Assembly: GCA_965205015.1 (NCBI GenBank) | Contig: OZ242029.1 | Location: 4,704,001 to 4,768,000, forward strand | From: Candidatus Poribacteria bacterium | GTDB taxonomy: Bacteria; Poribacteria; WGA-4E; WGA-3G | Direction of reading: 5' to 3' | DNA length: 64,000 bases | Shown: piece after piece, positions 434 through 45,760 of the stretch | How the letters are laid out: every line of letters starts with the position of its first letter | Numbering within the stretch: position 1 is the first letter of the stretch | Program-made: the position numbers and the translations under genes | Notes under the pieces: generated by a model | What the model was told of the DNA's origin: nothing | Databases searched by the model: none | The model's input: only the letters and a program-made list of their open reading frames with translations

Positions 434-3400
434 ATGAAAAACGCCATTTTAATCTTTAGCATTATCTTTTTTTCGCTCCTTGTCTGTATTGAGACGGAGT
501 CTGAACAAATCCTTACCTACACTGTTGCCGATGGCTTGATAGGTCCCGTTGTCCCCGTTATTTTTCAGGACAGTCGGGGGAATCTGTGGTTCGGTTCCGA
601 TCGGGGTGGGGTGAGTCAATTTGATGGGACCCGGTTTGAATCCTACATTGGATCTCCGGACACTTCTGAGCACGCGCCCACATCCAATGTGGGGCCCGGT
701 GCTCTCCTCGGACAGACGCGACAAATCGTTGAAGATAAATGGGGACATATTTGGTTCCTCACTCAGTTCCCTTCCGAAAATTCAGGGAAGGTCAGTCGGT
801 TTGATGGGTCTTCGATTGATCTTATCGGCACAGGTAATTCGCTACTCGCTGACAAGCATGGTGATATATGGGTCGGTGAGAATCAGCAACTCACGAAGTA
901 CACCACTCCCGGCGTCCAACGGCTGCCCCAAGCACATCCAAACGAAATTATAGGTGAAGGTCTGCTCCGCTCAACGGATTTCACAATAAACGTTATCTTC
1001 GAAAGCGAAGACGGAACGATTTGGATCGGTGGGAGCGAAGGTGAAGAACAGCAGGGTGTCATACTCAGTTTCCGAGAGAATCGCTGGGTCCAGGATCCCT
1101 TAAGAGTCGAGGAGAGTGATGCCCCACGCGAGAAAACGGACGATGGAACACAGCGGATTCATCCAAATATTGGATTTACACGTTATGACTTATCAACTCT
1201 TAACGCTGTGAATGGCATCGAAGCCATCGGTGAAGATATCTCTGGAAACCTCTGGTTCGGTGGCTACAATCTTCTCTTACGTTTTGATGGAAAAGTGTTT
1301 GAGCCAATACTGCCTTTAACCCGGGGACACAGTGGATCCATAGGTAGCAGGCCCGCATCAATACAGAGGCTGGCATCAATCCGGAATGATACGCAAAATC
1401 GAGTCTGGTTCAGCGATGGACGCACTACAAGATGGTGGGACGGCTCCCAGCACGGAAACCTCCCCGGGTTTCTTGAACTTGAGGATGCCTGGGGACATCT
1501 ATGGTTTACCGACGCGATCGGCGCGCATGAGTATGATACCGACCTCACGCAAATGCCTGATCGTATCAATAGTGGACTCGGCATTGAGGGAATTCATACG
1601 ATTTATGAAGCCATAGACGGTAAACTGTGGTTTGGCCACGATAATGGGGTCACAGCCTTCGATCCAACACCTGCCATCAGCACACACGCGGGACTCGGCA
1701 CCAATAGGGTACGGATGATATTTGAGGACAGTCGAGGTTACCTCTGGCTGAGTGTGCCAGGAGGTGTTGCCCGTTATGATGCAGAATCCGAAGAGCTGAC
1801 GACACATATTTTCAGAGTCAGTTCAGTTCGCAATGATCCATCGTCCGGTTCCCAAATTGACGCCAGAACTATAGAACGCGTCCGGCCCTCTCGAACTGAA
1901 ATCGAAAAAATATTTGAAGTTGGGGGGCACGTCTGGTTTATTGACGAACCAGGGATAACCAGCAATTCCACGCGATTACGATATACATTCTTTCGGTACG
2001 CAAATGGAAAGTTCAGTCAAGTCTCTATTCCCATCCAAACCATAATTGGTCCTGGCGGGGAACGGTCAGATAGCGACACGAACGTTCTCATTCGCGAAGG
2101 AGAATATACATGGATGGCTTTTGGCGGACACATCTTCAAAGCGGACGCAGCAGGGTTATTACGGCTTACAAACACCGGCTTTCAGAGGATACTTTTTCAA
2201 GAAATCGGTCCGAGTACTATCCCGACTCCAATAGCTCCAATAGAGTTCGGGACAGCCCCCGTTACTGACTTGTACAGAGATCCAAACGACAGATTATGGG
2301 TGCATTTCGATAATGGAAAGGTCCTGCGCTATCCGAAAGAAATTAACACCACAATAACTCGCCTGAGTCAACCTGAAATCTTGCCTCTTAAAGCGACACA
2401 GTTATTAAAAACCGCATCAGGCAGCAAATGGTTCTTTAACGCGGTAACTGGAAAATTGACACTTTGGAGTGACACTGAACTCGGTAGCCCGCTTTCGCTT
2501 GACGGGGAGTCCAGTTCTGCCCCGATCGCTGTTTGGAAAGATGCGAGCCAGCAAAATAACCGAGTAACTTTCCTCTTCTCAGATGCTCTTAAGACATATC
2601 ACGGCACATCACTCATTTCTCTTGAGGACATTGAAATCGCTGAAGTACAAGACTCTTTGACCACCCAAGAAGGCGTCCTCTGGTTAGCAACATCTCGCGG
2701 GGCAGTCCACTATGACGGAAAAAGAGCCAGAATCTACACAACAAAAGAGGAGGGATTTCTCGTTGACAATGTGAAAGATGTCATGGAAGATAGCCGTGGA
2801 AATATATGGTTCGCGACCTGGGGCGGCGGTACTGTCCGATATGACGGTGAAACCTTTTATAACCTCACCACAAAAGATGGTCTCACCCATAACAATATCT
2901 CGAGAATTCATGAATCTGCTAATAAAGATATTTGGTTTACAACCGAAGGCGGCGTCACACAATATACACCCACACGCGGTGGGTTGCCAGAATGTCGACT
3001 GACCTCCCTTGAATCTGATAAAATTTACACCGATCTTTCCTCCAGTTTAACGCTACCGTCGCGTGGAACGAAGATATTAAATATCCAAGGTATCAGTCCA
3101 CTCCGAGAAGGGCTTTCCTATCGCTTTAAATTAATTGGGCTGGACACCCCCACATGGATGAATGTTTCGGCAGAAGAGTTCTCGCTTCTGGCAACAGGTT
3201 CCGCGGGACCCTCCGACGAATGGACCCCTCATACTGCCTCCGTATCGACAACGCAACATCCCATGCGCGACAGTGGCGTTGTCCAAGAGCTCCAAAATCG
3301 AAACGGGATTCTGCGTATCCAATATACAGGGCTTAAAGCGGGCAATTACAGCTTCCTCGTCACGGCATTCCGTAAAGACTGGCCCTATACACACACACCG

Positions 3401-4380: not shown

Positions 4381-6300
4381 CTAAGCCCCCATGAACTCAA
4401 TAACTGTTTGCCGATACTCTTCAGGGAGCCCAATGTCAAACCGTCGTCCTTTGACGATATATCCAGAAAATCCGTCCGCCTTTCGTAATTCGTCTAAACA
4501 GGATGTCAGTTGAAATTCGCCGCGCTCCCGGAGATTATGGGTGATATTTCGTTCCAGAAACTCGAAAATCTGAGGTTGTAGCACATAAATACCGAACACC
4601 GTCAAGAACTGGTCCATATCCATCCCATCTACGTGCAAATGTTCCATGGCATACTCAGGATCGGGTTTCTCATAAATCTCCGTTAGCGAAAGTAGGGAAT
4701 TTTCCTCTCTCCATGTGCCAGTGACACAACCGAAGTTCGACAACTGCTCGATCGGTGTCACTTTCAGCCCGACGACGCTATGCCCTACCTGCTCATAAGC
4801 CTCTACGACCTGTCGTGCACAACATCTCTCCTCATCCGAACCGTAGAGATGGTCTCCGAGCATGAGCAGAAACGGCTCGTTCGCGACCCATTCTTTTGCA
4901 CAATAGACGGCATGCCCGAACCCCTCTTGAACGTCCTGTGTGACGAACGTCACTCGACTCCCTAATTCCAGCAGTGCGTCGCAATACGCCTGGTTCTCCT
5001 TGCTGAGCTTATTATAGTGTTCAATCCGCGGGGGTGTCTTGAAAAATGATTCAAAAAGCTCGGTATCTCCGGGTTGGACGACAAGACAGATCTCCTCAAT
5101 GCCAGCGTTGATCGCTTCCTCAACGATTGCCATGATTGCTGGTTTGGCACGTCCAGACTTATCAATCACAGGAAAGAGTTCCTTCTTCATCGCCTTTGAG
5201 GCTGGAAAGAGTCGCGTTCCGAAGCCAGCGGCAGGAATAACGGCTTTTCGGACATGTCTCCCCGCCTCAATAACCAGTTTCAGGCACGACATCTGCAAAT
5301 CCCGTTCGATAATCTCAATGACCCGCTGTTGACTCTCCTCATCTTTTACAATGAATTGTGCCGAACCGTCGCCCTGCGAACCGACACCTTTACCACCCCA
5401 GATATACGGTTGAATCGGTTCATAATTGAGGACTTTATGGAGAACAGGCGCCGTCAATTGTGATGGACATGCGGGTATCAAGTGTTTATCGAATTCCGTT
5501 TGTGCGCGCGTCATGAGTTTACCGACTGCCTCTGCATCGCCATCGCGAAGGGCTTGGTACGCCTGCTGCGTAATTTCTGCGCTCAACGGACCGAGATAGT
5601 GTTGCACATTCTTTTCTAATTCATTTTCTGCAAATGGATAACAGTGATTTAATTGGCTCAATATCAGACGTGTATCTTTACTGGCACCGAGATCGACGAT
5701 TACCAGGTACATGTCGTGAGGCACACTGAAGTCTTTTACATCAATATGATCCCCATCAAACGTCATGAGAATAGGGCGTTGGTATGCACACCCTTGGTCC
5801 ATCCGTCCACAACGTGAAGGCGTTGTGGTCTCTCCTCGGTACGCATACTCCATTTCCCCGCGCGTTGTTAATTTCAGATCATAGGTACGATTGAAGGCGC
5901 GCGCCACCAGAACACTGATAGCCGCACTCGAAGACAACCCTTTTCTCACCGGTAAATCAGTGAGATAGTTGTCGATTTCCAATCCTTGCACGCGGTAGTT
6001 CGTTAGAATCTCATAGGCGACCCCAGCCGCATAACTAAAAAACTCACCTTTTTCAGCCTCAGCGAGAAGCGCACTTCGCTCCATGGGTAGGCTATAGGGA
6101 CCGTGGCGGGTACCATCGCTGAGGGTCGTTTTTAAAATCAGACGGTTCGGATGCGGTTTAACCTCGGCGTATACACCTTGGTTTGTGCTGGTTATTAACG
6201 TATAGCCCCTTTCGAGCTCCGCGTTACTTCGCCGGTGCCCGCCTGCCCAATCGCTGTGTTCGCCGAATAGGCAAATCCTTCCCGGCACAAAAAGTTTCAT
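4381..6300 (-). CDS. Bifunctional GHMP sugar kinase / GalU-like sugar-1-phosphate nucleotidyltransferase
   Basis: N-terminal GRICLFGEHSD, PVRKGLSSSAA, GRMDQ; C-terminal KAVIPAAGFGTRLFPASKAMKKELFP, QEGFGHAV, YEKP. Confidence 0.85.
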   Translation of the reverse strand: MKLFVPGRICLFGEHSDWAGGHRRSNAELERGYTLITSTNQGVYAEVKPHPNRLILKTTLSDGTRHGPYSLPMERSALLAEAEKGEFFSYAAGVAYEILTNYRVQGLEIDNYLTDLPVRKGLSSSAAISVLVARAFNRTYDLKLTTRGEMEYAYRGETTTPSRCGRMDQGCAYQRPILMTFDGDHIDVKDFSVPHDMYLVIVDLGASKDTRLILSQLNHCYPFAENELEKNVQHYLGPLSAEITQQAYQALRDGDAEAVGKLMTRAQTEFDKHLIPACPSQLTAPVLHKVLNYEPIQPYIWGGKGVGSQGDGSAQFIVKDEESQQRVIEIIERDLQMSCLKLVIEAGRHVRKAVIPAAGFGTRLFPASKAMKKELFPVIDKSGRAKPAIMAIVEEAINAGIEEICLVVQPGDTELFESFFKTPPRIEHYNKLSKENQAYCDALLELGSRVTFVTQDVQEGFGHAVYCAKEWVANEPFLLMLGDHLYGSDEERCCARQVVEAYEQVGHSVVGLKVTPIEQLSNFGCVTGTWREENSLLSLTEIYEKPDPEYAMEHLHVDGMDMDQFLTVFGIYVLQPQIFEFLERNITHNLRERGEFQLTSCLDELRKADGFSGYIVKGRRFDIGLPEEYRQTVIEFMGA

Positions 6301-6450
6301 CTTTTTAACTGTGGCCTCCTATTAACCCTCAACTCGCGCTTTGAATTGTCATTATCATTAGTTGTATTATATTCTGAAGTTCACCAATAAGTCAACAAAG
6401 CTTCTCATCAATACACGTCGCAAGAACGGAGATAGAGACACCCATAAAGT

Positions 6451-8868
6451 TCACGGCATGCGGTTTCGTGCCCACTGACATCTCTGTTTCCACTCTTTCG
6501 CCTTTAGGGTGGTCCCGAGGGGCAGTGTTCCATCTTCTGCTATCACAGAGAACGCCGCTGTCGCATTCACATAATCTCTCTGATGATACCCATTGATGCC
6601 CATCGTCCGCCATGCATCTAACACAAGACTTTGGTGTTGTTGGGGTGTCAATTGCGCTAACGATGATGCTTCGTGGAACCCCTTATCCGAGATCCGTGCT
6701 TCCTCTTGCAAGCGTGCGACCGCCCGGCGTAAGTACTGATTACTACTTTGCCACGCGCCTTCTCTATGCAGCAATTCACCCGCTAAGAGATACGCCAACC
6801 ACATATCAGGTTCCGTTTGCATACACATCGTTAGATACGCCATTTTCTCCCCAGAATCTTTAGACTCAACTAACACCCCACGGAGTAACTCGCGCAGAGA
6901 CCTATTTTCTTGCGTTGTTCCGTTCAACTCGGTATCCCATCCCACTGGAACGCCATCGGGATAAGACAATGCTGCAATCCGTTTGATACGCCTCCGCTCA
7001 ATTGTCCCATACTCTGTTTCAATCGCCGCATAAGTATTTATCGCCTGTTCATAGTCACCTCTCAGCCAATAAATGTCGCCCTTCAATAGCATCGCCTCTG
7101 GGCTGAACCGCGTGTCTTCCTTGCCGGCAATATGGGTCGCTAAGGATATCGCTTTATCATAATCCTGCCTTCGATATGCGGTGTACATTAAGCCCCGCAG
7201 TGTGCTCAAATTGTCGGGTTCCTCGGACAGCATTGTCTCAAAAGTTTGCACAGCAGTGGCAAAGTCCTTGCGGTAATATGCCTGCCAAGCGGTATCTCGC
7301 AATGCTGCCATTTCATGGGCACAGCCCTGTTCAAAAACACTTCTGCGTTTTAAACGGTATGCTGCGTAGGCGACATCATCATCTCGCAATGGAACCGTTC
7401 CCAAAAATTCAATCCACTCCGCTTCCAAGGCAGGTAAGTCTTTCGCGTAGGACTTTACAAAATTACCGGTCGGAAAAACGCCCTTAAATTTTTCTATGCC
7501 GTAGGTATCAACAAGAAACCGAACGAAGGAGCCTGCCAACAGATAACTCCGGGAACCGGCATGTCCCCAAAACCCAATCCCCATGATCCCTGACAAGGGA
7601 GGTGCGACCTCCATCTCCCGCATTGCTTTCGCCCATTGATGTCCTGTGAGTCTGCCTTCATCCCAATCCGCGGCGACTGCGATCCCTTCGTGGAGCCCTA
7701 TTTTCAGGCTCACCTTCAACGGTGACCACGGCACAGTAAAGACATGCGCCAACTCATGCTTCAGGACGGAATGTGGAAACCCCTGGTCATGAATGTGAAA
7801 CCCGTGTCCGAACGGGTCTTCGACGGATGTGCCGCGTGCCCCAATCAACCGCTTTTTCTGTTCAGGAGAGGCATAGATATACGCGCGGACCTTTCGAGAG
7901 TGCATCGTGCTTCCAGGATTGAGATAATCAGACAATTGGGCGTACTGAAATTCGCAATCTTCAGCGATCCGTTCAATTTCCGACTCCAGTTCACGTGCAT
8001 AGAAAATTTCAAAGTGTGCCGTTTCACGTAAGCCTCCGAGTTCGCGGGCGATATCGTCGCGCGTAGGTCGTATTCCCAACGCCCCTGCATAGAACTGGAG
8101 ACCGAGTAAACCAATGACTAACAGATATAACCACACACATCTGGCCGCCAGCGGACTGAAAAGCTTACGCCACCTCAACCGCGGCATCAATCCTGTCCCT
8201 CTGCTCACTTCACATAAACTGACGGTAACACCCAAAAATAGCAGTGCCCACAATAGGGTCTCCGCCCGTGCGATCAGCAGTGTATTTGTTATCGGAATGA
8301 CGAAATCGTAAATCGGTCCTGGGAAATACCCGAATGTCGCGTGATACGCAAACACCGGTGGATGAAATATTAGATTGATAACCACCGGAATACAAGAAAC
8401 CAAAAGATGACCAAGATAGGCGAGATATGCCAACCATCGTTTTTCAATCCAGAACCCAAAAAACACGCCTGCTGCGGTTGCATACACGCAACTTATTACG
8501 GACAAAAGTAAAAAAAAGAGGAATCCCTCACCGAAGTTACAGTTTTCGACGCGAAACGCATTCAACAGAATAATACCGAGCGATACCCCCAATAAACCTG
8601 CGTTAAATATCAGTGCTTCACAAAAACACCGCATGACGACCTGCCCGGGCGTACCGGTAATGGCACTCGGATGCCGTTTCATTTGCCGCAACACTGTCAG
8701 TGTTACGTGTGCACCGACGAAAGAGATACTCAGTGCCATGACGGCGCAAAACTCAAAGGCAAGGAGGTTAAACAACGGAATACTGGCAAGCACCAATGCG
8801 AATACGCCGAATGCAATGAACCACAACCAATATGAAAATGTCCTGTGAACCGTAAGTATTATGGGCAT
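6451..8868 (-). CDS. Multi-pass membrane protein with gluzincin-like (HExxH) peptidase domain and C-terminal TPRs
   Basis: About 7 hydrophobic N-terminal segments; LKHELAHV followed by LHEGIA; TPR-like helices AWQAYYRKDFATAVQTF and KGDIYWLRGDYEQA. Confidence 0.7.
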   Translation of the reverse strand: MPIILTVHRTFSYWLWFIAFGVFALVLASIPLFNLLAFEFCAVMALSISFVGAHVTLTVLRQMKRHPSAITGTPGQVVMRCFCEALIFNAGLLGVSLGIILLNAFRVENCNFGEGFLFFLLLSVISCVYATAAGVFFGFWIEKRWLAYLAYLGHLLVSCIPVVINLIFHPPVFAYHATFGYFPGPIYDFVIPITNTLLIARAETLLWALLFLGVTVSLCEVSRGTGLMPRLRWRKLFSPLAARCVWLYLLVIGLLGLQFYAGALGIRPTRDDIARELGGLRETAHFEIFYARELESEIERIAEDCEFQYAQLSDYLNPGSTMHSRKVRAYIYASPEQKKRLIGARGTSVEDPFGHGFHIHDQGFPHSVLKHELAHVFTVPWSPLKVSLKIGLHEGIAVAADWDEGRLTGHQWAKAMREMEVAPPLSGIMGIGFWGHAGSRSYLLAGSFVRFLVDTYGIEKFKGVFPTGNFVKSYAKDLPALEAEWIEFLGTVPLRDDDVAYAAYRLKRRSVFEQGCAHEMAALRDTAWQAYYRKDFATAVQTFETMLSEEPDNLSTLRGLMYTAYRRQDYDKAISLATHIAGKEDTRFSPEAMLLKGDIYWLRGDYEQAINTYAAIETEYGTIERRRIKRIAALSYPDGVPVGWDTELNGTTQENRSLRELLRGVLVESKDSGEKMAYLTMCMQTEPDMWLAYLLAGELLHREGAWQSSNQYLRRAVARLQEEARISDKGFHEASSLAQLTPQQHQSLVLDAWRTMGINGYHQRDYVNATAAFSVIAEDGTLPLGTTLKAKEWKQRCQWARNRMP

Positions 8869-8903
8869 CTTTTAAAAATTGACGATCGTGTTTAGTAATA
8901 TGC

Positions 8904-8949
8904 GGGCAGGCACAAGACCTGGGGAAACACCCAAGCAAAAACCCCCTAC
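8904..8949. repeat. REP-like palindrome (GGGCAGGCACAAGACCTG...CCCCTAC) interrupted by a 21-bp insert
   Basis: CTAC/GTAG end with imperfect palindrome; insert matches the reverse complement of 24391-24409. Confidence 0.55.
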
Positions 8950-9107
8950 AATGTCTTTTTTATAAACCTCGCCAGCGGCGTGTGGGTCGTCGGTCTTCCA
9001 TAGAAATTGCGTAAGTCCTATCTATTTTACTGAGATATCTCCACTATGTCAAGCAGAATTCCATCGACGGCTGATCACGGATCGCTGACTGCGATTACAA
9101 AATTTTC

Positions 9108-9136
9108 TTGCAGTTTTTGATAAAATGTGTTAAAAT
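9108..9136 (+). promoter_or_regulatory. Sigma70-like promoter upstream of pspA-like gene
   Basis: TTGCAG, 17 nt spacer, TAAAAT with extended TG. Confidence 0.5.
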
Positions 9137-9252
9137 ACGGTAATATGGGTATCTGGACGCGGTGTAAAGCCGCCAAGGGACCCCTGCATAACTCGCAAAT
9201 CCACTATAGGAAGACCGCGCTTCTCATGCGCACGCTCAACAGGAGAAATAAC

Positions 9253-10089
9253 ATGGCAAATGGATTCACACGATTTTTTAAGGCTATTTGGTACACACTG
9301 ACAGGAAAGGCACACGAATCCGCGGATAGAATGATGGAAAACCCCGAAGCCGTCAGAGGGGCTTACGAGGACATCATCAACGACAAAAAGGGGAATATCC
9401 AACGCTACAAGCAAGCGATCGGGCAACTTATCGCACTCGTTGAACAGAAGAGATCTACGGTTAAAAGCCTTACCGACGAAGTCGAGCGGTTGGAAGAACT
9501 AAAATCAGGAGCCATCGCCAAGGCACAGCAGACTGCTGCCCAATTACAAGGTGAAGGACTCTCACAGGAAGAAATCAAGGTGCACGGTGAATATACGCGA
9601 TGCGTCACTGCTTATCAAGACTTCAATTCCAACTTGGTGGAGAAAACCGGTCGGATCACGGAACTCGAAAACGAGATTGAAAGTGCGCAAGCTGATATTG
9701 AGTCGCACAAACTTCAGATTACCAGTCTCCATCGCGATTTAGATAAGATTAAGTCCGAACAGTCTGAGGCAGTGGCGGATCTGATTACTGCACGGGAGCA
9801 AGAGGAAATCGCCGATATGCTCTCCGGTATCAGCATGGACGGCACTTCCGCTGAATTGACCCGCATGCGCGAAATACGTGAGAAAGCCAAAGCGCGTTCA
9901 ACGGTTGCACAGGAGTTGGCTGGAACCGACTCAAAAAGCGAAGAGGAAGAATTCCTCACTGCAGCGCGTTCCTCTGCCACCAGTGACGAATTTGATGCCT
10001 TAATCTTCGGCGCACAGCAGACTGACGCAAAGATAGAGACGGAAACTCCTAAAAAGACAACAGATTCCGATTCTGAACTGCCAGTTTAA
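9253..10089 (+). CDS. PspA/IM30 (ESCRT-III superfamily)-like coiled-coil protein
   Basis: AGGAG RBS before ATG 9253; N-terminal amphipathic helix GFTRFFKAIWYTL, ENPE hinge, long coiled coils, RMREIREKAKARSTVAQEL region, acidic tail. Confidence 0.65.
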   Translation: MANGFTRFFKAIWYTLTGKAHESADRMMENPEAVRGAYEDIINDKKGNIQRYKQAIGQLIALVEQKRSTVKSLTDEVERLEELKSGAIAKAQQTAAQLQGEGLSQEEIKVHGEYTRCVTAYQDFNSNLVEKTGRITELENEIESAQADIESHKLQITSLHRDLDKIKSEQSEAVADLITAREQEEIADMLSGISMDGTSAELTRMREIREKAKARSTVAQELAGTDSKSEEEEFLTAARSSATSDEFDALIFGAQQTDAKIETETPKKTTDSDSELPV

Positions 10090-10105
10090 ACTGAGAGGTT
10101 TGTTT

Positions 10106-10157
10106 GTAGTGGCGCAATTCATTGCGCCTGGAGAGCGGCGATGAATCGCCTCACTAC
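10106..10157. repeat. Inverted REP doublet (GTAG...CTAC)
   Basis: GTAGTGGCGCAATTCATTGCGCC followed by GGCGATGAATCGCCTCACTAC. Confidence 0.7.
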
Positions 10158-12095
10158 GAACGATTTTTCCTACAATTTAAGGGTGGACAGCCCAATAGAT
10201 ACGTCACCTCAAACAGAAGGGGGCAACGAGCCATAGCTGTTAAGAGTCCAACCTATACATTCCTGAAAGAAGCCGGACTGCTCATCAATTCGGGAACTTC
10301 TCGTAGCCTCGTCCTATCTGGAAATATCCACGATCTCTTCTTCGTTCGCGACGGAGATGACCCGGATTATATTCCACTCGTCCCCTTTTTGACGCGCAGC
10401 TGGGACATTCCAGGGTTCATCCTAATCGTTTATGAACTCAATGGACCTATTCGGTTTGCTAAGGAAGCTGAACGCGAAAAAGTTAAGCATGCGTTCAATC
10501 TATGGCGAGGTGCAACTGAGTCAAATCTTGACATAAATGCCAGTACTGGTGCCGCTGATCCAATACAGGCAGTTGTTGAACGCGCGACACCTACCGAAGC
10601 CGACGCATTCGCAGACGCCTCTTTTACACAGTACATGAACGACGCAATCGGCAGTCCGACGTTGGCACTGGAACTTCTACGGCAGTTCTGTCTGCTCTCC
10701 CGCACCACGAACGCGCAAGGTGAAAAACGACTACAGGAAAAATTGATAATCCTGATTGAAGCAACGGACATGTTGCTACCGGAAGGTGAGATTCGGAGTT
10801 TGTCGTTACCGGACAGACACCGCGTCAGCATCGTTCAAGATTGGATCTCGGACTCCAGTTTCATGGAGGGTAACGACACCGTCATCTTTATCACAGAATC
10901 AGCGAGTCTCGTGAACTCTCGGATCACAAGACTGCCCCAGGTCCTCAGCGTCGAAATACCAGCACCGGGAATGGAGGCGCGTCAACATTTCATTTCATGG
11001 TTTAACAACACACCGAAACTGGTGGAAAAACCGTTGAACCTTTGGGGTACACAAACCCAACTCGCGATGCTCACGGCAGGTTTATCCCTCCAAGCCCTGC
11101 GACAGATGCTCCTTTCCGCGCGTTACTCCGGTGAGAGATTACAACCTGCGGCTGTTATCAATAAAGTGTCTGAATTCATCCAAGGTCAGTTAGGTGAAGA
11201 TGTCGTAGAGTTCAAAAAGCCTGCGCACAGTCTCAAGGACATCGTTGGCAACCAAAAATTGGTGGATTTTCTGAAGACGCAATTAATTCCGCGCATCACC
11301 TCAACCGGTCCCGATGCGATCCCTGGAATGAGCGTCTGCGGTCCTATCGGTAGCGGAAAAACGTTCATTTTCGAGGGGCTCGCCGGTGAACTCGACATCC
11401 CTGTACTCGTCCTGAAGAACATCCGGAGCATGTGGTTCGGACAGACAGACATCATCTTTGAACGCCTCCGGCGATTGCTGATGGCTCTTGTGAAGGTGCT
11501 GATCTTCGTTGATGAAGCGGACACCCAATTCGGCGATGTTGGAAGAGACGCACACAGTACAGAACGGCGTTTGACAGGAAAGATACAGGCGATGATGTCG
11601 GATCCGCAACTCCGCGGCAACATCACGTGGCTTCTGATGACCGCTCGGATTTATCACCTTTCTCCCGACCTACGGCGAGAGGGCAGAGTCGGGGATATGG
11701 TCATCCCGGTGCTCGATCCGACAGGTGAAGACCGCGAGGCGTTTCTTCGATGGACGCTTGCCAAAGTCATTCCCGGTCCTCTGCCTGAAGATGCAGTCGA
11801 ACGACTTGTGAAACTGACCGAAGATTATTCTGCGGCGAGTTTCGCATCGCTACGTTCCGATTTGGAAGCCGCCAGTCTCATCAAGAAAGATAAACTGACG
11901 CTTGATGAAATCATCGCTGTTGCGGAAGACCGCATCCTACCGAACATCGGTCCGATTCGACGCTATCAAACCTTACAAGCACTCGTCAATTGCACGCGTA
12001 AATCGCTGCTGCCGGGGAAATATTCTCCAGAAATCCGAGAGTCATGGGTCAAACAAATTGCTCAACTTGAAGCGATAGGTGTTAGAGATCGATAA
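10122..12095 (+). CDS. AAA+ ATPase with degenerate N-terminal AAA-like module; true start uncertain (possibly ATA 10233)
   Basis: Walker A GPIGSGKT, pore loop SMWFGQT, Walker B LIFVDEAD, SRH DLRREGR; N-terminal LVLSGNIHD and LIILIEATD degenerate motifs. Confidence 0.85.
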   Translation: MRLESGDESPHYERFFLQFKGGQPNRYVTSNRRGQRAIAVKSPTYTFLKEAGLLINSGTSRSLVLSGNIHDLFFVRDGDDPDYIPLVPFLTRSWDIPGFILIVYELNGPIRFAKEAEREKVKHAFNLWRGATESNLDINASTGAADPIQAVVERATPTEADAFADASFTQYMNDAIGSPTLALELLRQFCLLSRTTNAQGEKRLQEKLIILIEATDMLLPEGEIRSLSLPDRHRVSIVQDWISDSSFMEGNDTVIFITESASLVNSRITRLPQVLSVEIPAPGMEARQHFISWFNNTPKLVEKPLNLWGTQTQLAMLTAGLSLQALRQMLLSARYSGERLQPAAVINKVSEFIQGQLGEDVVEFKKPAHSLKDIVGNQKLVDFLKTQLIPRITSTGPDAIPGMSVCGPIGSGKTFIFEGLAGELDIPVLVLKNIRSMWFGQTDIIFERLRRLLMALVKVLIFVDEADTQFGDVGRDAHSTERRLTGKIQAMMSDPQLRGNITWLLMTARIYHLSPDLRREGRVGDMVIPVLDPTGEDREAFLRWTLAKVIPGPLPEDAVERLVKLTEDYSAASFASLRSDLEAASLIKKDKLTLDEIIAVAEDRILPNIGPIRRYQTLQALVNCTRKSLLPGKYSPEIRESWVKQIAQLEAIGVRDR

Positions 12096-13227
12096 CCTCT
12101 CCGGTCGCCGCCGAACGATACCCTGCACAGATAATTTCCACGGAGTGTGCTGCAAATTCGGCGTTCATTTCGCTCTCTACACCGTTTTCAATACAATCGA
12201 CAAACGCACCGAATTCACGGGCACTATCGTCATCACTCCCGACATCTATCCACTGCTGCTTCGGGGGCATCTTAATCTCTGCTTGCGTGCTACTCCACAT
12301 CCCCATCGGATCGAGCGGATGCGGTGAAGGTGGTTCAAACGCCGGTTCAGCCGCGAAAACCTCCAAACGGTTCGCTGACGCATCAAAGGTCAGACTCCCT
12401 TCGGTACCGACGAGCTGCACCTTTCGGACACCCCCTTGGGCATGACTCTGCCACCCATAGCGTCCCCCAGCAATCGTCGCTGTAATTCCATCCTCCAACG
12501 TCAGGACCAAAGCACCGAAGTCCTCAACATCGCAGCCGAGATGTTCCTTAAAGAAATAGTTCGCCGTTCCACCGAACACACGCTGCACCCGTTTCTGGGT
12601 CAACCAATTCACCATGGATACCGCATAAACGCCGACATCGAACATTTCAGGTTTCGCTTCCACAAAACTGTAGCGTTCGCGATCGGATTTTTCGATCCTT
12701 TTTTGCCCAACAGGGGCGCTACCCGGATGTCCCTTGGAGAACAGGACATCACAATGGACTGCCCGAAGTTCGCCGATGCTCCCACTTGTCAACGCTTGCT
12801 GGACAGTGCGTGCCCATGCGCTGTGAATGTTGCTGAACATCTGGCTCCGCACCCCACTTTTGGCAACTGCTGCAACGATCTGTTCCGCATCTTCCGGAGT
12901 GAATGCCATCGGCTTATCAAGATAGACGTGTTTTCCGGCTTCCGCACATTTCGCGCCGATACGCCCGCGCCGTTCCACGTCTGTACAGAGACTCACGATA
13001 TGCACATCCTCGCGTGCCAGTGCCGTGTCAAGGTCAGGAATGAACGGCAAATCCAAAGACTCAGCAAGCGAACGTCCCAACGTAATCCGCTCTGGGGGTG
13101 CGTCCGGTTCATCAGCGAACGCTACCAACCGACAGCGTGCATCCTGCGCAAAACTCGATGCGTAATTCTCTTGATGTGTGCGATTCCCACCGAGTAGGAG
13201 AACCCCATATTTTCCATTCTGCTGCAT
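12082..13227 (-). CDS. Gfo/Idh/MocA family oxidoreductase
   Basis: AGKHVYLDKPMA, GSIGELRAV, MFDVGVYAV. Confidence 0.85.
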   Translation of the reverse strand: MQQNGKYGVLLLGGNRTHQENYASSFAQDARCRLVAFADEPDAPPERITLGRSLAESLDLPFIPDLDTALAREDVHIVSLCTDVERRGRIGAKCAEAGKHVYLDKPMAFTPEDAEQIVAAVAKSGVRSQMFSNIHSAWARTVQQALTSGSIGELRAVHCDVLFSKGHPGSAPVGQKRIEKSDRERYSFVEAKPEMFDVGVYAVSMVNWLTQKRVQRVFGGTANYFFKEHLGCDVEDFGALVLTLEDGITATIAGGRYGWQSHAQGGVRKVQLVGTEGSLTFDASANRLEVFAAEPAFEPPSPHPLDPMGMWSSTQAEIKMPPKQQWIDVGSDDDSAREFGAFVDCIENGVESEMNAEFAAHSVEIICAGYRSAATGEVIDL

Positions 13228-13229
13228 GT

Positions 13230-13673
13230 TTAAGCCTCCAACGTAATAGGTTGACCGCTCTCAAGCGATTGCGCGATAGCCTCTGTCAATTCACCTGTGG
13301 CACCTAATTGCGGCGATGTCGCGTTCAGGTAGTGCCTGCCGACCGGCGTTTCATGATAGATAACACCTTTGTTGCCAACCAACATGATGTCAATCGCCGT
13401 CTCAACTTCGACCCGATTGACACTCAACAGTGCCATCTGTCCTCCCACATAGTGAACCATTACCGTAACCTGTGTTGCGCCTGCATCTCCTTGCGCATAG
13501 ACGCACGCTGGCGATGCGGGCATCCATCCGTTCGCGAGTGCTGCCATCTCTGACACCGGTGATAGCAAATTCGAGGCATCACCCGCCACATGCAAGACGC
13601 ACCGCAGGAACACTGGACGCCCAATCCGTTCCTTCTCAAGCACAGACTGAACCGATTGTTTTAACAATTCCAT
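13230..13673 (-). CDS. Hypothetical protein resembling an isolated Gfo/Idh/MocA C-terminal domain
   Basis: ERIGRPVFLR, PACVYAQG, MLVGNKGVIY, AIAQSLESGQPITL; AGAAAGGAG RBS; no Rossmann fold. Confidence 0.6.
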   Translation of the reverse strand: MELLKQSVQSVLEKERIGRPVFLRCVLHVAGDASNLLSPVSEMAALANGWMPASPACVYAQGDAGATQVTVMVHYVGGQMALLSVNRVEVETAIDIMLVGNKGVIYHETPVGRHYLNATSPQLGATGELTEAIAQSLESGQPITLEA

Positions 13674-13709
13674 ATCTTCTCCTTTCTAAATAAGGTAAGC
13701 TAAAAATTA

Positions 13710-13739
13710 TTGACGAATCCGCGGACATTATGCTATAGT
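13710..13739 (+). promoter_or_regulatory. Sigma70-like promoter
   Basis: TTGACG, 18 nt spacer, TATAGT with extended TG. Confidence 0.5.
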
Positions 13740-13746
13740 GTGTATG

Positions 13747-13797
13747 ATTATCGGTTATCAGTTACAAGAGGATTCTGTTAGACGCAAACCTCTTAAC
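13747..13797. repeat. Heptamer-arm hairpin repeat
   Basis: attatcg gttatca gttacaagagg ... aacctcttaac. Confidence 0.65.
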
Positions 13798-13894
13798 TCT
13801 ACACAAGCCTATAGAGGTTTGCGGGACAATGCGAGGCAAACCGACAGGGTCTTCGTAGAAAACCCGAAGCGACACCTATAAATGGAGGAAAACA

Positions 13895-14260
13895 ATGCCC
13901 CTGAAAACCCTTGAACAACTCGTTGCCGAAGCGAAAGCAAACGTTGGACACATTTCACCCACCGAACTTACAGAAACTACGGAGTCAATCATCCTCTTAG
14001 ATGTCCGAGACGAACCCGACTACGATAAAGAACATCTACCGGAAGCGGTTTCTCTACCACGCGGCTATCTTGAACTCGATATTGATGAGATCGCCCCTGA
14101 CGCAGACACACACATCGTCACGTATTGCGGCGGCGGCACCCGTGCAACGCTCTCCGCACATACCCTAAAAAACATGGGCTATGAAAATGTCTCTGTGCTA
14201 ACGGGCGGTTTCCGCGGTTGGAAAACCGAAGGACTCCCAACCGAAGAATCCGATGAATAA
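13895..14260 (+). CDS. Rhodanese-like sulfurtransferase
   Basis: LLDVRDEPDY, active-site loop YCGGGTRA, LTGGFRGW. Confidence 0.9.
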   Translation: MPLKTLEQLVAEAKANVGHISPTELTETTESIILLDVRDEPDYDKEHLPEAVSLPRGYLELDIDEIAPDADTHIVTYCGGGTRATLSAHTLKNMGYENVSVLTGGFRGWKTEGLPTEESDE

Positions 14261-14324
14261 GCCCATCTATGCACATAGATTAACATAGATAACAGACCTT
14301 GTCAACATCTCGGTATGGAGCAAA

Positions 14325-14410
14325 TTTTTAATTATACCTTGCGAGGGAACAACATTGGTTCAGAGTTTGGCGTGTTTTTTTAAGAGTCGCTTTCCACTTC
14401 GTTCCAGGCT
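14325..14410 (+). repeat. Dispersed TTTTTAATTwTACCTTGCG...CAGGCT element (diverged copy)
   Basis: Same ends as the copies at 24318 and 32340. Confidence 0.55.
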
Positions 14411-14441
14411 TGGTTTTTGATGTTACACTGTATAGATCCCA

Positions 14442-15482
14442 ATGGAGAAAAATATGCGTAACAGATACATCCTCTTAGTACTGATACTCCTCGCGCTCTT
14501 CATCGGCGATAGCGATGGACAGAAGAAACAACTCAACGTCTTTACATGGGCGGGTTACGTCAGTGATGACATCCGCGAGGGATTTGAAAAGGAATATGGG
14601 GTGAATGTCCTCATTGATACATACGCCAGCAACGAGGATCTCCTTGCGAAGTTGTTAGCAGGCGCGACAGGCTACGACATCATCATGCCGTCCGACTATA
14701 TGGTGTCAATCTTAATCAAACAGAACCTGTTAGCTGAACTGAATCGCGACAACATCCCCAACTTCCAGAATATCAGTCCACTGTTCCTCGGCAAATACTT
14801 CGATGCCGAAAACCGATACTCTATCCCCTACACATTCGGCACTGCAGGTATCGCCTACGATTCGTCCGTCGTTACGCCAGCTCCCGACAGTTGGACAGTG
14901 CTTTGGGACGCGCAATATAAGAACCAATTCAGCATGTTAGACGACCAACGCGAGACCATCGGTGCGGCACTTAAACTGCTCGGATACAGCCTCAACACCA
15001 CCGATCCAAATGAAATTAAAGCGGCGAAAGAGAAGTTAATTGCGCAAAAACCGCTCGTGAAGCAATATAAAAGCGAGGCGGAAGAACTCCTTATCGCTGG
15101 GGATGTCGTCATGGCGCACTGCTGGAGTGGCGATGCGTTCCGAGCAACTGAGACCCGTCCAACAATTCGGTACGTTATACCCAAAGAAGGATCCAGCCAG
15201 TTTATAGATGCCGTCTGCATTCCGAAATCGGCACCACATAAGGCACTCGCTGCACAATTTATCAATTACCTGCTTCGTCCTGAAGTCAATGCCAAGATTA
15301 CGGCTTTCACAAAATACGGCACCTGTGTGCCGACAGCGAAAGAATACTTACCGGAACATCTGCGAGAACACAAATTTATCTATCCGCCGGCAGAGATTTT
15401 GGAATCCCTTGAGTGGCTGAAAGATCCGGGGGATTTCACGAGGCACTACAACCGCGCATGGGAAGAAATTAAGGCAAAATAA
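14442..15482 (+). CDS. potD: Spermidine/putrescine ABC transporter substrate-binding protein
   Basis: FTWAGY, YASNEDL, YDIIMPSDY, WSGDA, PKEG, FINYLLRPE. Confidence 0.85.
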   Translation: MEKNMRNRYILLVLILLALFIGDSDGQKKQLNVFTWAGYVSDDIREGFEKEYGVNVLIDTYASNEDLLAKLLAGATGYDIIMPSDYMVSILIKQNLLAELNRDNIPNFQNISPLFLGKYFDAENRYSIPYTFGTAGIAYDSSVVTPAPDSWTVLWDAQYKNQFSMLDDQRETIGAALKLLGYSLNTTDPNEIKAAKEKLIAQKPLVKQYKSEAEELLIAGDVVMAHCWSGDAFRATETRPTIRYVIPKEGSSQFIDAVCIPKSAPHKALAAQFINYLLRPEVNAKITAFTKYGTCVPTAKEYLPEHLREHKFIYPPAEILESLEWLKDPGDFTRHYNRAWEEIKAK

Positions 15483-15549: not shown

Positions 15550-16629
15550 ATGTTCAAAACGCTTCAACACCTACGATGGATTATTGTTGGTTTAACTGCT
15601 GTTGTTCTATTCCATGTAACTATAGAAAACAGTGTTGCAAAAAAATGGGAGGTCGTCTCTCAACTTCCAACAGGGAGATCGGCATTCTCGACCGCAGTTG
15701 TTGACGGTAAAATCTATCTCATCGGCGGTACCCTCCTTGAAAACGAGAGCAGTGGTCCTTTTGGGCTTTCAACAGTAGAAGTCTACAACCCGCACAACAA
15801 GAGTTGGAAAAAAGTTGCCGATATGCCAACGCCTCGATCCAATGCAGAAGCAGCAGTCGTGGACGGAAAAATCTATGTCGTCGGTGGACTCGCTGCAACA
15901 GACAGACGCATGGAAAGCACTAAGATTCTGAAAGTCGTTGAAGTCTACGACCCCCAAACCGACACATGGGAAAGAAAACAGGATATGTCCCAGCCGCGTC
16001 TTTCGTTTGGTATAGGTGTGGTTGGAAGGAAAATATATGTCATGGGTGGAGCGAATTTCTTTGAGAATCAGTGGCGACTTGATCATGTGGAAGTCTATGA
16101 TCCCGATGCTGATGTCTGGCACAACCGTCCAAGTTTACTCACGCGGCGCGATGGTTTTGAGACAGCAGTCGTTGAAGATAGTATTTATGTTATTGGCGGG
16201 CGCGGATGGCCATCAATCGCCCAAAACGGCCCGTATCTTGCGACCATTGATGTCTATGAACCCGGAAATAGGTGGCGGAAGAAAACCGATCTGCCAAGCC
16301 TTAGATACGGCTTTTCGTCAGTTGTCGTTGCGGACGAAATCTATCTCATCGGCGGGCTCGAAGGTGCGGCTTTCGATCAACATGTGAAGACGGTAGAATC
16401 CTACCATGCCAAAGCTGGGATATGGAGGATAAGGAAGCCAATGCCAATCGGAAATACCCCGTTTGGGGTAGCGACAGTCAACCAGAAAATTTATATCCTT
16501 GGTAGTGAAAGAGAAGGCGGAGAATTTTCTCTGGATGTTGAGGTATTTAAAGTTGTTGGCGTCAGAGCAACCGACAAATTGCCGGTGCGTTGGGGTGAAC
16601 TTAAAGCACAAGATGTATCGCGACCTTAA
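15550..16629 (+). CDS. Secreted Kelch-repeat protein with C-terminal KLxxxWGxLK tag
   Basis: Six GKIYxxGG...VEVYDP...W repeats; signal peptide; ends DKLPVRWGELK. Confidence 0.9.
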   Translation: MFKTLQHLRWIIVGLTAVVLFHVTIENSVAKKWEVVSQLPTGRSAFSTAVVDGKIYLIGGTLLENESSGPFGLSTVEVYNPHNKSWKKVADMPTPRSNAEAAVVDGKIYVVGGLAATDRRMESTKILKVVEVYDPQTDTWERKQDMSQPRLSFGIGVVGRKIYVMGGANFFENQWRLDHVEVYDPDADVWHNRPSLLTRRDGFETAVVEDSIYVIGGRGWPSIAQNGPYLATIDVYEPGNRWRKKTDLPSLRYGFSSVVVADEIYLIGGLEGAAFDQHVKTVESYHAKAGIWRIRKPMPIGNTPFGVATVNQKIYILGSEREGGEFSLDVEVFKVVGVRATDKLPVRWGELKAQDVSRP

Positions 16630-24454: not shown

Positions 24455-26131
24455 ATGCCAAAATCTACTATAATGTCCCTCTCACAGCCCCATCGCCATT
24501 TAAAATCGTTATTACACGTCCTCCTATTCCTTCTGCTAACCGCAGGCAACACTGCTTCACAATCCCCTATTTTCACGGATGTCACCGAAGAAGCAGGCAT
24601 CCACTTCAAACATAACAAGGGGACAACCGAACACAAGCATATCATTGAGACAATGGGTTCCGGGACAGTCTTCTTCGATTACGACACCGATGGTGATCCC
24701 GATCTGTATTTCGTTAACAGTGGGAGCGTTCCTCAAGAGACCCCACAAACGCTTGGGAATGTCCTATATCGAAACGAAGGCGATGGACGTTTCACGGATG
24801 TCACCGAAATCTCAGGAATAGGGGACACAGGATACGGAATGGCGGCATCTGCGGGGGATATCGACAATGACGGCGATCCCGACCTCTATGTCGCCAACTT
24901 CGGGCAAGATAAACTCTACCGAAACAACGGCGACGGCACCTTTACCGACATCACCGAAGTCGCCGGTATTGATAATACGCTCTGGAGTATCGCCGCTGTT
25001 TACTTCGATTTCGACGTGGATGGCGACCTGGACATCTTCGTCGTCAACTATCTGGTGTACGAATTGTCAATGCCGATATCCACCTACAAAGGCATTGTCG
25101 GTTACGGGCACCCGCGTAGCTACAAAGGCACACCCGATGTGCTCTACCGAAACAATGGGGACGGCACCTTCACAAACATTGCCGAGAAGGCAGGCGTGAC
25201 AAATCCGGTCGAAGGACGAGGTATGGCAGCGGTTGCTTGGGACTACGACCAAGACGGATTTCCGGATATCTACGTCGCCAACGACACCAACAGAAATTTT
25301 CTATACCATAACAACGGCGACGGCACCTTCACGGATGAAAGCATCTTCATCGGTGTCGGTTACGATGACAGAGGTGTCGCTGAAGGGTCTATGGGGATAG
25401 ATTGTGCAGACTACAACGGTGATGGATGGTTCGATCTGATCGTCGCGAATTCCGAGAAGGCGACCCTCTATAAGAACGAGGAGGGACTCTTCTTCACAGA
25501 TACCACCGCAGACAGTGGATTGGAACAACCGACACTCCCGTTTGTTGGCTTCAGTCCGCTCTTTCTGGATTACGATCACGACGGACACCTCGACATGTTC
25601 TGTGCAAACGGACACCCACAAGACATAATTGAGATATTAGCGGACAATGAAACCTATGCCCAACGCGACCAGCTCTTTCAAAACAACGGCGACGGCACTT
25701 ATACCGATGTCTCTGCATCCGCCGGCGCTTACTTTTCCGAACCACTTGTTGGTAGAGCCGCCGCGACCGCCGACTACGACAACGACGGGGATCCCGATAT
25801 TGTCATCATGAATTCCAATCAGCGCGCAGTGCTGCTTCGGAACGATGGTGGGAACTTGAAAAATTGGCTGAGCCTTAAACTGGTCGGGACGCACAGCAAT
25901 CGCGACGGGATCGGTGCGAAGGTCACGGTCGCGGCAGGAGACCTGACGCAGATACGGGAAGTGAAGAGCGGTTCAAGCTACGCCTCAGGCAGCGATACAC
26001 GCCTGCTGTTCGGTTTGGGAGAAAATCAAGATGTTGAGAAAGTAAGCATCGTCTGGCAAAGCGGGACCCCACAAGAATTGCGAGATGTCTCCATCAACCA
26101 GATTCTAACAATCGTAGAATCGGAAAGATAG
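24455..26131 (+). CDS. CRTAC1-family FG-GAP repeat protein with C-terminal ASPIC/UnbV domain
   Basis: Repeated DYDxDGDxDL and LYRNNGDGTFTD; SNRDGIGAKV, GSSYAS, LLFGLG. Confidence 0.9.
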   Translation: MPKSTIMSLSQPHRHLKSLLHVLLFLLLTAGNTASQSPIFTDVTEEAGIHFKHNKGTTEHKHIIETMGSGTVFFDYDTDGDPDLYFVNSGSVPQETPQTLGNVLYRNEGDGRFTDVTEISGIGDTGYGMAASAGDIDNDGDPDLYVANFGQDKLYRNNGDGTFTDITEVAGIDNTLWSIAAVYFDFDVDGDLDIFVVNYLVYELSMPISTYKGIVGYGHPRSYKGTPDVLYRNNGDGTFTNIAEKAGVTNPVEGRGMAAVAWDYDQDGFPDIYVANDTNRNFLYHNNGDGTFTDESIFIGVGYDDRGVAEGSMGIDCADYNGDGWFDLIVANSEKATLYKNEEGLFFTDTTADSGLEQPTLPFVGFSPLFLDYDHDGHLDMFCANGHPQDIIEILADNETYAQRDQLFQNNGDGTYTDVSASAGAYFSEPLVGRAAATADYDNDGDPDIVIMNSNQRAVLLRNDGGNLKNWLSLKLVGTHSNRDGIGAKVTVAAGDLTQIREVKSGSSYASGSDTRLLFGLGENQDVEKVSIVWQSGTPQELRDVSINQILTIVESER

Positions 26132-45590: not shown

Positions 45591-45760
45591 TCAAGGCACC
45601 CAAACCTAAAGGATTGGGCTTGTGCTTCGTAGCAGTTCGCCTTCCGAGGAAGGACTTACATCTGCTCCACAGAGGGACCCAAGGCAGCCCTCAAGATGTT
45701 TATCGCAGCGTTTACGTCCCTGTCGCGGTGTGACCCACAGTCGGGGCATGTCCACTGCCG
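45590..45760 (-). ncRNA. Putative TnpB omega/reRNA scaffold (5-prime boundary approximate)
   Basis: Established location overlapping the tnpB 3-prime end and right end; hairpins CCTTCC-TC-GGAAGG and the right-end stem. Confidence 0.5.

Follow-up and report, generated by a model that had tools for sequence, protein, structure and literature searches.

A divergent PspA paralog encoded beside a tandem AAA+ ATPase in Candidatus Poribacteria: a candidate ESCRT-III-type polymer with its own motor

A 64 kb stretch of a Candidatus Poribacteria genome (contig OZ242029.1, positions 4,704,001–4,768,000; this whole stretch is called the window below) contains two adjacent rightwards-transcribed genes, one for a protein read as a divergent PspA/IM30-family member and one for a type II classic-clade AAA+ ATPase. 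In the list of open reading frames (ORFs) of the window they appear on the + strand as 9253–10089, giving 278 amino acids (aa) from an ATG, and 10122–12095, opened by a TTG. The pairing is conserved well beyond close relatives, and the linked PspA proteins carry a C-terminal tail of their own. That the two genes constitute one functional module, with tail-guided extraction of PspA subunits by the second AAA module (D2) of the ATPase as the most likely mechanism, seems about as probable as all other readings together.

Structure of the PspA-like protein and of the ATPase

The product of the first gene (9253–10089, + strand) is read as a divergent PspA/Vipp1-type member of the PspA/IM30 family, and therefore of the ESCRT-III superfamily. 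Pfam PF04012 (PspA_IM30) matches it in a single stretch (E 2e-7; profile positions 3–206 of 220), 12 of the 32 aligned subfamily members are matched at E up to 1e-3 (best 4.1e-9), and protein database annotation places PF04012 on the protein and its relatives. A predicted model with the subfamily alignment as input has a predicted local distance difference test (pLDDT) value of 75.4 and contains helices at residues 4–16 (low pLDDT), 31–100, 112–196 and 198–223, with further helices reaching residue 252. The long helices 31–100 and 112–196 are modelled mostly at pLDDT above 90, and the model has the alpha1-alpha2/3 hairpin followed by more helices, as in solved PspA and Vipp1. In a Foldseek comparison with the PDB, ranks 1–6 are all Vipp1/PspA (E 2.6e-4 to 5.9e-3; TM-scores of 0.40–0.48 by query length), and a profile search of PDB sequences returns Vipp1/PspA as its top four (E 1.5e-3). 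The ESCRT-III-type fold suggested in the original prediction, which was made from the letters of the window alone, is thus recovered both by fold and by profile.

Both ends of this protein have distinctive features. At the N-terminus, residues 3–16 (NGFTRFFKAIWYTL; 9259–9300, + strand) form an amphipathic helix with a hydrophobic moment of 0.63, rank 1 of 264 windows in the protein; in this region of the 32-sequence alignment R7, Y14 and T17 are conserved at 90% or more and G18 is invariant. The helix is likely a membrane anchor. At the other end is an acidic, mostly disordered tail (residues 225–278; 9925–10086, + strand) with a net charge of −9 and pLDDT under 50 for residues 252–278, so that the amphipathic helix and acidic tail named in the original prediction are both present. 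The tail contains the motifs 'AGTD', 'EFLxxA' and 'EFDxLI[FG]', then a linker of variable length and composition, and ends in a carboxy-terminal LP[EVLI], which is LPV (10078–10086) in the window. Across 32 PspA partners, down to 28% identity, residues E231, A238 (EFLxxA), F247 (EFDxLI[FG]) and P277 are invariant and L276 is conserved at 90% or more. An ending of the LP[EVLI] type is absent from five other PspA paralogs of the same Poribacteria genomes. The tail motif set is specific to the ATPase-linked PspA subfamily and is described here for the first time. A conserved ending on a disordered acidic tail looks like a docking or threading handle to which the ATPase would bind; predictions of a complex between the ATPase (619 aa) and PspA residues 195–278 scored 0.00, 0.58 and 0.00 in three runs against a mark of 0.32, and carry no weight either way.

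In three Poribacteria genomes, other PspA paralogs score 54–205 bits, against 25.9 bits for the ATPase-linked copy. Since canonical, better-scoring paralogs sit elsewhere in the same genomes, the linked copy is regarded as a specialised paralog. No second PspA-like ORF was found within the window. One close Poribacteria genome (G001, at ~2.19 Mb) has three tandem PspA-family paralogs of 364–389 aa (L167, L169, L171) with a membrane-like N-terminal extension and Pfam scores of 65–75 bits, far above that of the ATPase-linked copy.

The second gene (10233–12095, + strand; within the mechanical ORF from TTG 10122) codes for an ATPase of about 620 aa with two AAA-like modules followed by a short C-terminal end. 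The first module (D1, residues 1–319; 10236–11192) is degenerate, as judged from an alignment of 28 family members and the model; D2 (residues 320–589; 11193–12002) is an intact classic-clade AAA module by Pfam AAA and PDB matches; and residues 590–619 (12003–12092) include a modelled helix at 598–613. D2 contains a Walker A motif GPIGSGKT (11340–11363), an aromatic pore loop SMWFG (11427–11441), a Walker B motif DEAD (11511–11522) and RREGR (11673–11687) in the Arg-finger region, all four of which are kept in the close family. The original prediction had quoted these same four motifs and had placed a degenerate module ahead of the intact one, and both points agree with the analysis. In D1, 'LSGNIHDLF' stands where Walker A is expected and 'LIILIEATD' where Walker B is expected; GK[ST] and an hhhhDE Walker B are absent from the N-terminal half of all 28 aligned members, whose sole invariant residue in that half is G29. 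Pfam AAA matches only the C-terminal half (E 6.3e-14) and the N-terminal half has no Pfam match, and a search of PDB sequences finds the D2 modules of Cdc48, VAT and p97 at about E 1e-16. A family-specific motif, RxYQxLQAxxNCTxxxLLP, lies before and across the boundary at residue 590, where Q578 (~11967) and P593 (~12012) are invariant in the 28 sequences and helices are modelled at 572–585 and 598–613.

The ATPase model is confident (pLDDT 90.1; predicted template modelling score 0.85) and relates the whole chain to tandem AAA proteins. VIA-align places residues 4–589 on D1 plus D2 of Drg1/AFG2, NVL, Rix7, 55LCC, p97, VAT, Cdc48 and Pex1/6 with Z of 20–22 over 453–485 residues (e.g. Drg1 7nku, Z 21.9, 472 residues aligned, on residues 248–780 of that chain), and Foldseek matches tandem AAA proteins over both domains at E down to 2e-17. 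D2 (320–589) superposes on Vps4 (3eih; Z 21.4, root mean square deviation 3.6, 264 aa); taken alone it fits Vps4, FIGNL1, spastin, proteasomal Rpt and FtsH equally well (Z about 20–21, root mean square deviation about 3), and these matches are ties. There is no room for an N domain, because residue 4 of the model already superposes on D1 of type II AAA proteins; Pfam finds no MIT domain in the ATPase, and NCBIfam CdvC scores 28.7 bits against a cut-off of 650. The protein is a type II classic-clade AAA+ ATPase with a dead D1 and neither an N nor a MIT domain, and does not belong to the Vps4 family. Its model suggests that it works like the threading unfoldases.

Conservation and gene order of the pair

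The pairing was followed in two scans of ATPase homologues. A scan seeded with a closer subset, taking one genome per species, kept 80 loci with 60–93% ATPase identity, all of them from Poribacteria. A PspA paralog is located upstream on the same strand at 75 of the 80, with a gap of <400 nt in 50, 0.9–2.6 kb in 22 and >2.7 kb in three; where the upstream flank is 4 kb or longer it is present in 70 of 71 loci. A scan seeded with an intermediate clade kept 80 metagenome loci with 44–66% ATPase identity to the query P0257, in which PspA was detected with a hidden Markov model of the Poribacteria PspA (151–296 bits where complete). Here PspA is upstream on the same strand in 32 of 80 loci, distributed by length of upstream flank as 26/34 at 4 kb or more, 3/19 at 1–4 kb and 3/27 under 1 kb; the number of independent metagenome loci is somewhat lower because some are near-copies (L086/L087; L145/L146). 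Named relatives among the best 120 profile hits are metagenome-assembled genomes of Hydrogenedentes, Sumerlaeia, Verrucomicrobia, Planctomycetota, Deltaproteobacteria and Acidobacteriota, and the ATPase family in the whole library comprises 249 cluster representatives at E up to 1e-30. The original prediction had left the conservation of the pairing to be checked; it holds at most of the well-flanked loci of both scans, alongside six further phylum-level labels.

The genes are arranged in two main layouts. The plain dyad, as in the window, occurs at 50 of the 80 Poribacteria loci and 13 of the 32 PspA-bearing metagenome loci. The other layout is a six-gene operon containing, in order, a transmembrane coiled-coil protein, PspA, a binding protein, an ATP-binding cassette (ABC) permease, an ABC ATPase and the AAA ATPase (e.g. 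L071, L073, L075, L098, L100 and L145). At 19 of the 32 PspA-bearing metagenome loci about 3 kb lies between PspA and the ATPase, with ORF sizes that fit the binding protein, permease and ABC ATPase, and Pfam identifies BPD_transp_1 and ABC_tran in L071 and gives a weak NMT1 match in L145.

A maximum-likelihood tree of 58 ATPases, rooted at the midpoint only, unites the PspA-linked ATPases in a single clade (support 100/99), which a long branch separates from four more distant groups. Within this clade the gene order has been altered several times and PspA has been retained. The ABC layout is found in basal Poribacteria and in most metagenome clades, and the dyad label needs eight changes on the tree; the window ATPase falls in an all-dyad clade of six (100/100). 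Because the ABC layout is basal and widespread and the window belongs to an all-dyad clade, its dyad is probably a reduced form of the six-gene operon.

Several accompanying genes differ between loci. The transmembrane coiled-coil protein of the six-gene operons (e.g. L071:1051–1866, L073:86–871 and L145:1216–2046) has two predicted membrane spans and 250–330 aa, and is encoded upstream of PspA; its 'DGDxRTExxLxDLR' locally resembles 'DGTxxELxRMRxLR' of the PspA partner. An hhalign comparison of this protein with the PspA profile gives a probability of 2%, which does not confirm kinship with Snf7/PspA. In some Poribacteria a conserved protein of 557–607 aa is encoded between PspA and the ATPase (L042:4132–5955, L054:4180–5955, L079:4318–5991), for which searches returned no Pfam family and no usable ESM Atlas match; in L042 another PspA-like gene, a shorter one, lies upstream (2366–3055). 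In L012 a TnpB-like gene of the IS605 type (4745–5902) lies between PspA and the ATPase and is 72% identical to an ORF of the window (45659–46831, − strand) that was named as IS605-type TnpB-like by eye from sequence features. The transmembrane protein, the ~600-aa protein and the ABC genes of the longer operons have no copy within the window's 64 kb.

Start codon, spacer and surroundings of the pair

The ATPase most likely starts at ATA 10233–10235 and not at TTG 10122, as comparison across Poribacteria indicates. The ATA follows a Shine-Dalgarno-like element, AGAAGGGGG (10215–10223; the two together span 10215–10235, + strand). The codon before the conserved 'AVKSPTYTF' is ATA in 56, ATC in 15 and ATT in one of 75 sequences (72/75, window included) and ATG in the other three, the count leaving out L008, L029, L035, L037, L038 and L080, where the match does not run from residue 1. 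A GGAGG-like element is kept 7–10 nt before the start codon even with diverged flanks, the nearest upstream in-frame stop is often just 2–8 codons from the ATA or ATC, and in 58 of the 72 no ATG, GTG or TTG lies between that stop and the non-ATG start codon. Many sequences have an ATG 15 codons downstream, whereas none occurs over 100 codons in the window and at seven loci. The N-terminal helix of the ATPase is kept in other phyla and is confidently modelled, and homologues from other phyla begin 10–17 residues ahead of the conserved 'INSG'. Gene callers place homologue starts variously; with probable starts at ATA, ATC or ATT in Poribacteria, automatic calls begin too far upstream or 15 codons late. 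AUA/AUC initiation, probable from these alignments, is reported here for this ATPase for the first time, and would give low ATPase output.

The 143-nt spacer between the two genes contains a long hairpin of about 25 bp followed by GAUUUUUCC, a U run (10100–10172, + strand). Its minimum free energy is −51.7 kcal/mol (z −3.36), none of 200 shuffles is as low, and the structure is unique in the window. It is missing from short-spacer relatives, and contigs of relatives from RNA libraries skip about 122 nt at this point. The hairpin is not a conserved feature: when seven stretches from six relatives were folded, only L067 reached z −3, the 3′ part of L003 gave −1.75 and the rest were weaker. The hairpin is a lineage-specific insertion of about 122 nt, and possibly acts as a leaky terminator.

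Relatives of both genes are present on contigs from three RNA libraries (two studies), and one contig of 412 nt bridges the junction (9865–10276); it gives only a hint of co-transcription, since these are assembled contigs that may stem from carried-over DNA. In two runs PspA exceeds the ATPase in summed contig depth, a measure that cannot rank genes and from which nothing is drawn. Upstream of the PspA-like gene is a weak promoter-like site (9117–9146, + strand; TTGATA, 18 nt, TAATAT; 9/12 matches). Such sites are not above chance in this region (five found, 3.5 expected in shuffles), and the single promoter for both genes claimed in the original prediction is not established.

The pair is flanked by two leftwards-transcribed genes (6451–8868 and 12082–13227), in agreement with the original prediction of two same-direction genes between opposite-strand genes. 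The right neighbour (12082–13227) codes for a GFO/IDH/MocA oxidoreductase. The left neighbour (6451–8868) codes for an 805-aa multi-pass membrane protein with many predicted spans and C-terminal TPR repeats, in whose translation a HELAH stretch was spotted by eye, and a gene of this type holds the same divergent position in many close Poribacteria relatives. The accessible part of Ravi et al. 2024 mentions TPR plus 6TM proteins beside bacterial Vps4-like genes, to which the 6451–8868 product may or may not be related. Among the six neighbours (4381 to 15482) no domain of the Psp or Lia type occurs, PspB and PspC included, which bears out the original statement that no pspF/B/C or liaRS is nearby. 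PADLOC returns only weak coiled-coil (LmuB, JetC) and P-loop (IetA) matches, so no defence family is indicated. Elsewhere in the window, three overlapping copies of a 60-nt unit occur at 48700–48825 (spacing 33 nt; 83–100% identity), and further internal repeats lie inside coding regions at 24764–25725 and 15676–16355. Close homologues of both proteins carry the label Candidatus Poribacteria, and among public runs the stretch is present mostly in sponge metagenomes.

A polymer-and-motor module and its relation to known systems

In the proposed module a specialised, membrane-binding polymer of the PspA/ESCRT-III type would be combined with its own AAA+ motor. The PspA paralog would bind the inner face of the cytoplasmic membrane via its amphipathic N-terminal helix and polymerise, as PspA and Vipp1 do. 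The ATPase would form a hexamer, its D2 ring hydrolysing ATP and its degenerate D1 ring providing a scaffold or docking platform. Recognising PspA by the conserved motifs of its disordered acidic tail, which ends in LP[EVLI], it would thread this tail through the D2 pore, lined by the aromatic Trp-Phe pore loop, pulling subunits from the polymer. The outcome would be ATP-driven turnover or remodelling of a PspA coat, following the principle of Vps4 acting on ESCRT-III with an ancestry like that of Cdc48/AFG2. With the probable AUA start and, in this strain, the intergenic hairpin, the ATPase would be made in far smaller amounts than PspA.

Several observations weigh against this proposal. The PF04012 score of the 278-aa protein (31.3 bits) is under the curated cut-off of 33.9, and the Foldseek E-values are modest for a coiled-coil protein, with generic coiled coils appearing from rank 7 on. 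The ATPase has neither a MIT domain nor a Cdc48-type N domain to serve as a docking site, and its direct contact with PspA is presumed. Not every ATPase has a PspA partner: Poribacteria locus L053 has none despite sufficient flank, and in eight of the 34 well-flanked metagenome loci (two of which are one sequence twice) the ATPase has no PspA within 6 kb and stands among unrelated neighbours. Pfam finds nothing PspA-like beside the distant inactive-D1 relatives on megaplasmids of Paenibacillus, Brevibacillus and Aneurinibacillus and on an Arthrobacter plasmid (the Firmicutes plasmid relatives are 26–29% identical over residues 164–603), so that the wider inactive-D1 family is not always PspA-linked. 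A second, distant inactive-D1 paralog in Poribacteria (L173:5447–7354) likewise lies between two Laminin_G_3 proteins and not beside PspA. Finally, the frequent ABC importer in the operon suggests a transporter or solute role that pure disassembly does not explain.

The main rival, rather unlikely on present evidence, is that PspA is a membrane adaptor or regulator and not the substrate, anchoring the ATPase to the membrane or silencing it until membrane stress, with damaged or misassembled membrane proteins, or the ABC importer parts and the transmembrane coiled-coil protein, as candidate clients. Such a role would suit the closest structural relatives of the ATPase (Cdc48, AFG2, Pex1/6, Msm0858), which are general extractors or unfoldases, as well as the ancestral-looking operon of basal Poribacteria and most metagenome clades, which supplies a transmembrane protein, binding protein, permease and ABC ATPase. 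The ATPase is also found without a neighbouring PspA, and a 2025 review, in the part available, describes a precedent in E. coli, where PspF, an AAA+ protein, is bound and silenced by PspA. Nevertheless, the dyad outlasts the loss of all other operon genes, with at least eight label changes on the tree and the window among the cases, and the conserved disordered acidic tail with its fixed carboxy terminus resembles a threading handle.

A role in solute uptake or envelope homeostasis appears improbable. Under it, the two proteins would be accessories in assembling or recycling the ABC importer, and the window would hold remnants, possibly with the transporter elsewhere. The 19 of 32 PspA-bearing metagenome loci with importer-sized ORFs in a ~3 kb interval and the Pfam matches in L071 and, weakly, L145 argue for it, as does the link to solute transport in the accessible part of Ravi et al. 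2024; yet repeated losses of the cassette have left PspA and the ATPase paired, plain dyads numbering 50/80 and 13/32. Very improbable, and already disfavoured, is that the adjacency is meaningless and a general Cdc48-like unfoldase lies beside a PspA paralog by chance. Some family members do stand alone, and the promoter and terminator scans show nothing above chance, but the same-strand linkage persists at 44–66% ATPase identity in several phyla and through several rearrangements, and the linked PspA proteins make up a separate subfamily with a distinctive tail.

Extraction of PspA subunits by the ATPase, the preferred mechanism, can be carried one step further, though only tentatively and at somewhat less than even chances. 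The locus would then represent a true bacterial ESCRT-III/AAA+ machine independent of Vps4, in which a dead-D1 AAA protein like Cdc48/AFG2 reads an LP[EVLI] tail code instead of the MIM-MIT interaction and strips subunits. If so, the range of the machine would take in Poribacteria, PVC-group phyla, Hydrogenedentes, Sumerlaeia, Acidobacteriota and others, an ABC importer and a membrane-anchored coiled-coil protein would have been its original partners, and ATP-driven ESCRT-III turnover would not be solely an archaeal invention. A PspA paralog that comes with a dedicated AAA+ protein of the threading type offers a two-protein system for testing ATP-driven remodelling of a bacterial polymer of the ESCRT-III type, the class of PspA and Vipp1, and the invariant tail end and intact D2 motifs allow precise mutants.

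The original prediction had guessed that similar neighbourhoods may already stand in comparative studies, and this is correct. PspA beside a dyad of an inactive classical AAA and a classical AAA module was described by Ravi et al. 2024 (mSystems 9:e00847-23), whose accessible text also reports longer operons with a transmembrane Snf7-like protein, an ABC ATPase, a permease and a binding protein, and proposes from gene context an ATP-dependent membrane remodelling comparable to Snf7/Vps4. Examples given there are AEY64321.1/AEY64320.1 (Clostridium sp. BNL1100), CKH37208.1 (Mycolicibacterium) and OGG56892.1 (Handelsmanbacteria). The published dyad and the present one agree in an ATPase with an inactive N-terminal and an active C-terminal copy, in the adjoining PspA, in the longer operon of relatives and in the functional proposal; their identity as a family rests on architecture and gene context and not on direct alignment, and Poribacteria are not among the names found in the accessible part of that study. 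The tail motifs and the start codon go beyond that study, as do the structural models. Because the idea is already in print, the value of the locus is that of a clean minimal example with added detail and not of a new kind of system; the interpretation of the dyad is reasonable and agrees with the published prediction. No experimental study of a PspA plus tandem AAA dyad was found in the literature, a search for Poribacteria together with PspA returned 0 papers, and no AAA partner was found in the accessible part of Popp et al. 2022.

Two further systems couple a PspA-like protein to an AAA+ protein. In Proteobacteria PspA is genetically coupled to PspF (2025 review, as available); PspF, however, is an NtrC-type enhancer-binding protein with a helix-turn-helix domain that is encoded divergently and regulated by PspA, whereas the present ATPase is a classic-clade tandem AAA protein with no DNA-binding domain and is encoded on the same strand as PspA. 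The 'Halo_adaptin' loci of haloarchaea (Makarova et al. 2024), compared by their description in the accessible text, have a weakly PspA-like gene upstream of a MIT-less Vps4-like ATPase, but are archaeal and differ in a VAT-type N domain, a single AAA module and winged-helix neighbours. According to the same portion of that study, systems with both ESCRT-III and Vps4 genes occur only in archaea and eukaryotes, and the 2025 review, so far as available, states that a Vps4-like ATPase appears absent in bacteria.

The type II AAA+ proteins (Cdc48/p97/VAT, Drg1/AFG2, Rix7/NVL, Pex1/Pex6 and the mycobacterial Msm0858) share the tandem D1–D2 fold of the present ATPase. They differ from it in that the present chain starts at D1 (~residue 4 of 619) with no double-psi-barrel or N domain, that its D1 is without Walker A and B, and that its C-terminal RxYQxLQAxxNCT is family-specific. 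Pex1/Pex6 also has degenerate ATPase modules.

With ESCRT-III/Vps4 of eukaryotes and CdvB/CdvC of archaea the locus shares an ESCRT-III-superfamily gene directly upstream of a classic-clade AAA+ gene, a polymer subunit with a disordered acidic C-terminal tail and short conserved motifs, and an ATPase with the classic-clade fold, an aromatic pore loop 1, Walker A and B and arginine fingers. Vps4 and CdvC, however, have a MIT domain and a single AAA cassette, whereas the present ATPase has no MIT domain and two AAA-like modules, with Drg1/AFG2, NVL, Rix7 and p97 as its best whole-chain matches; the tail of the present PspA ends in LP[EVLI]. The parallel with ESCRT-III/Vps4 drawn in the original prediction therefore stands in part: the PspA-type fold and the conserved pairing uphold it, while the ATPase is not Vps4-like but a tandem AAA protein of the Cdc48/AFG2/Rix7 kind. 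Because the architecture of the ATPase is not that of Vps4, the likeness to ESCRT-III/Vps4 is one of working principle and not of family membership.

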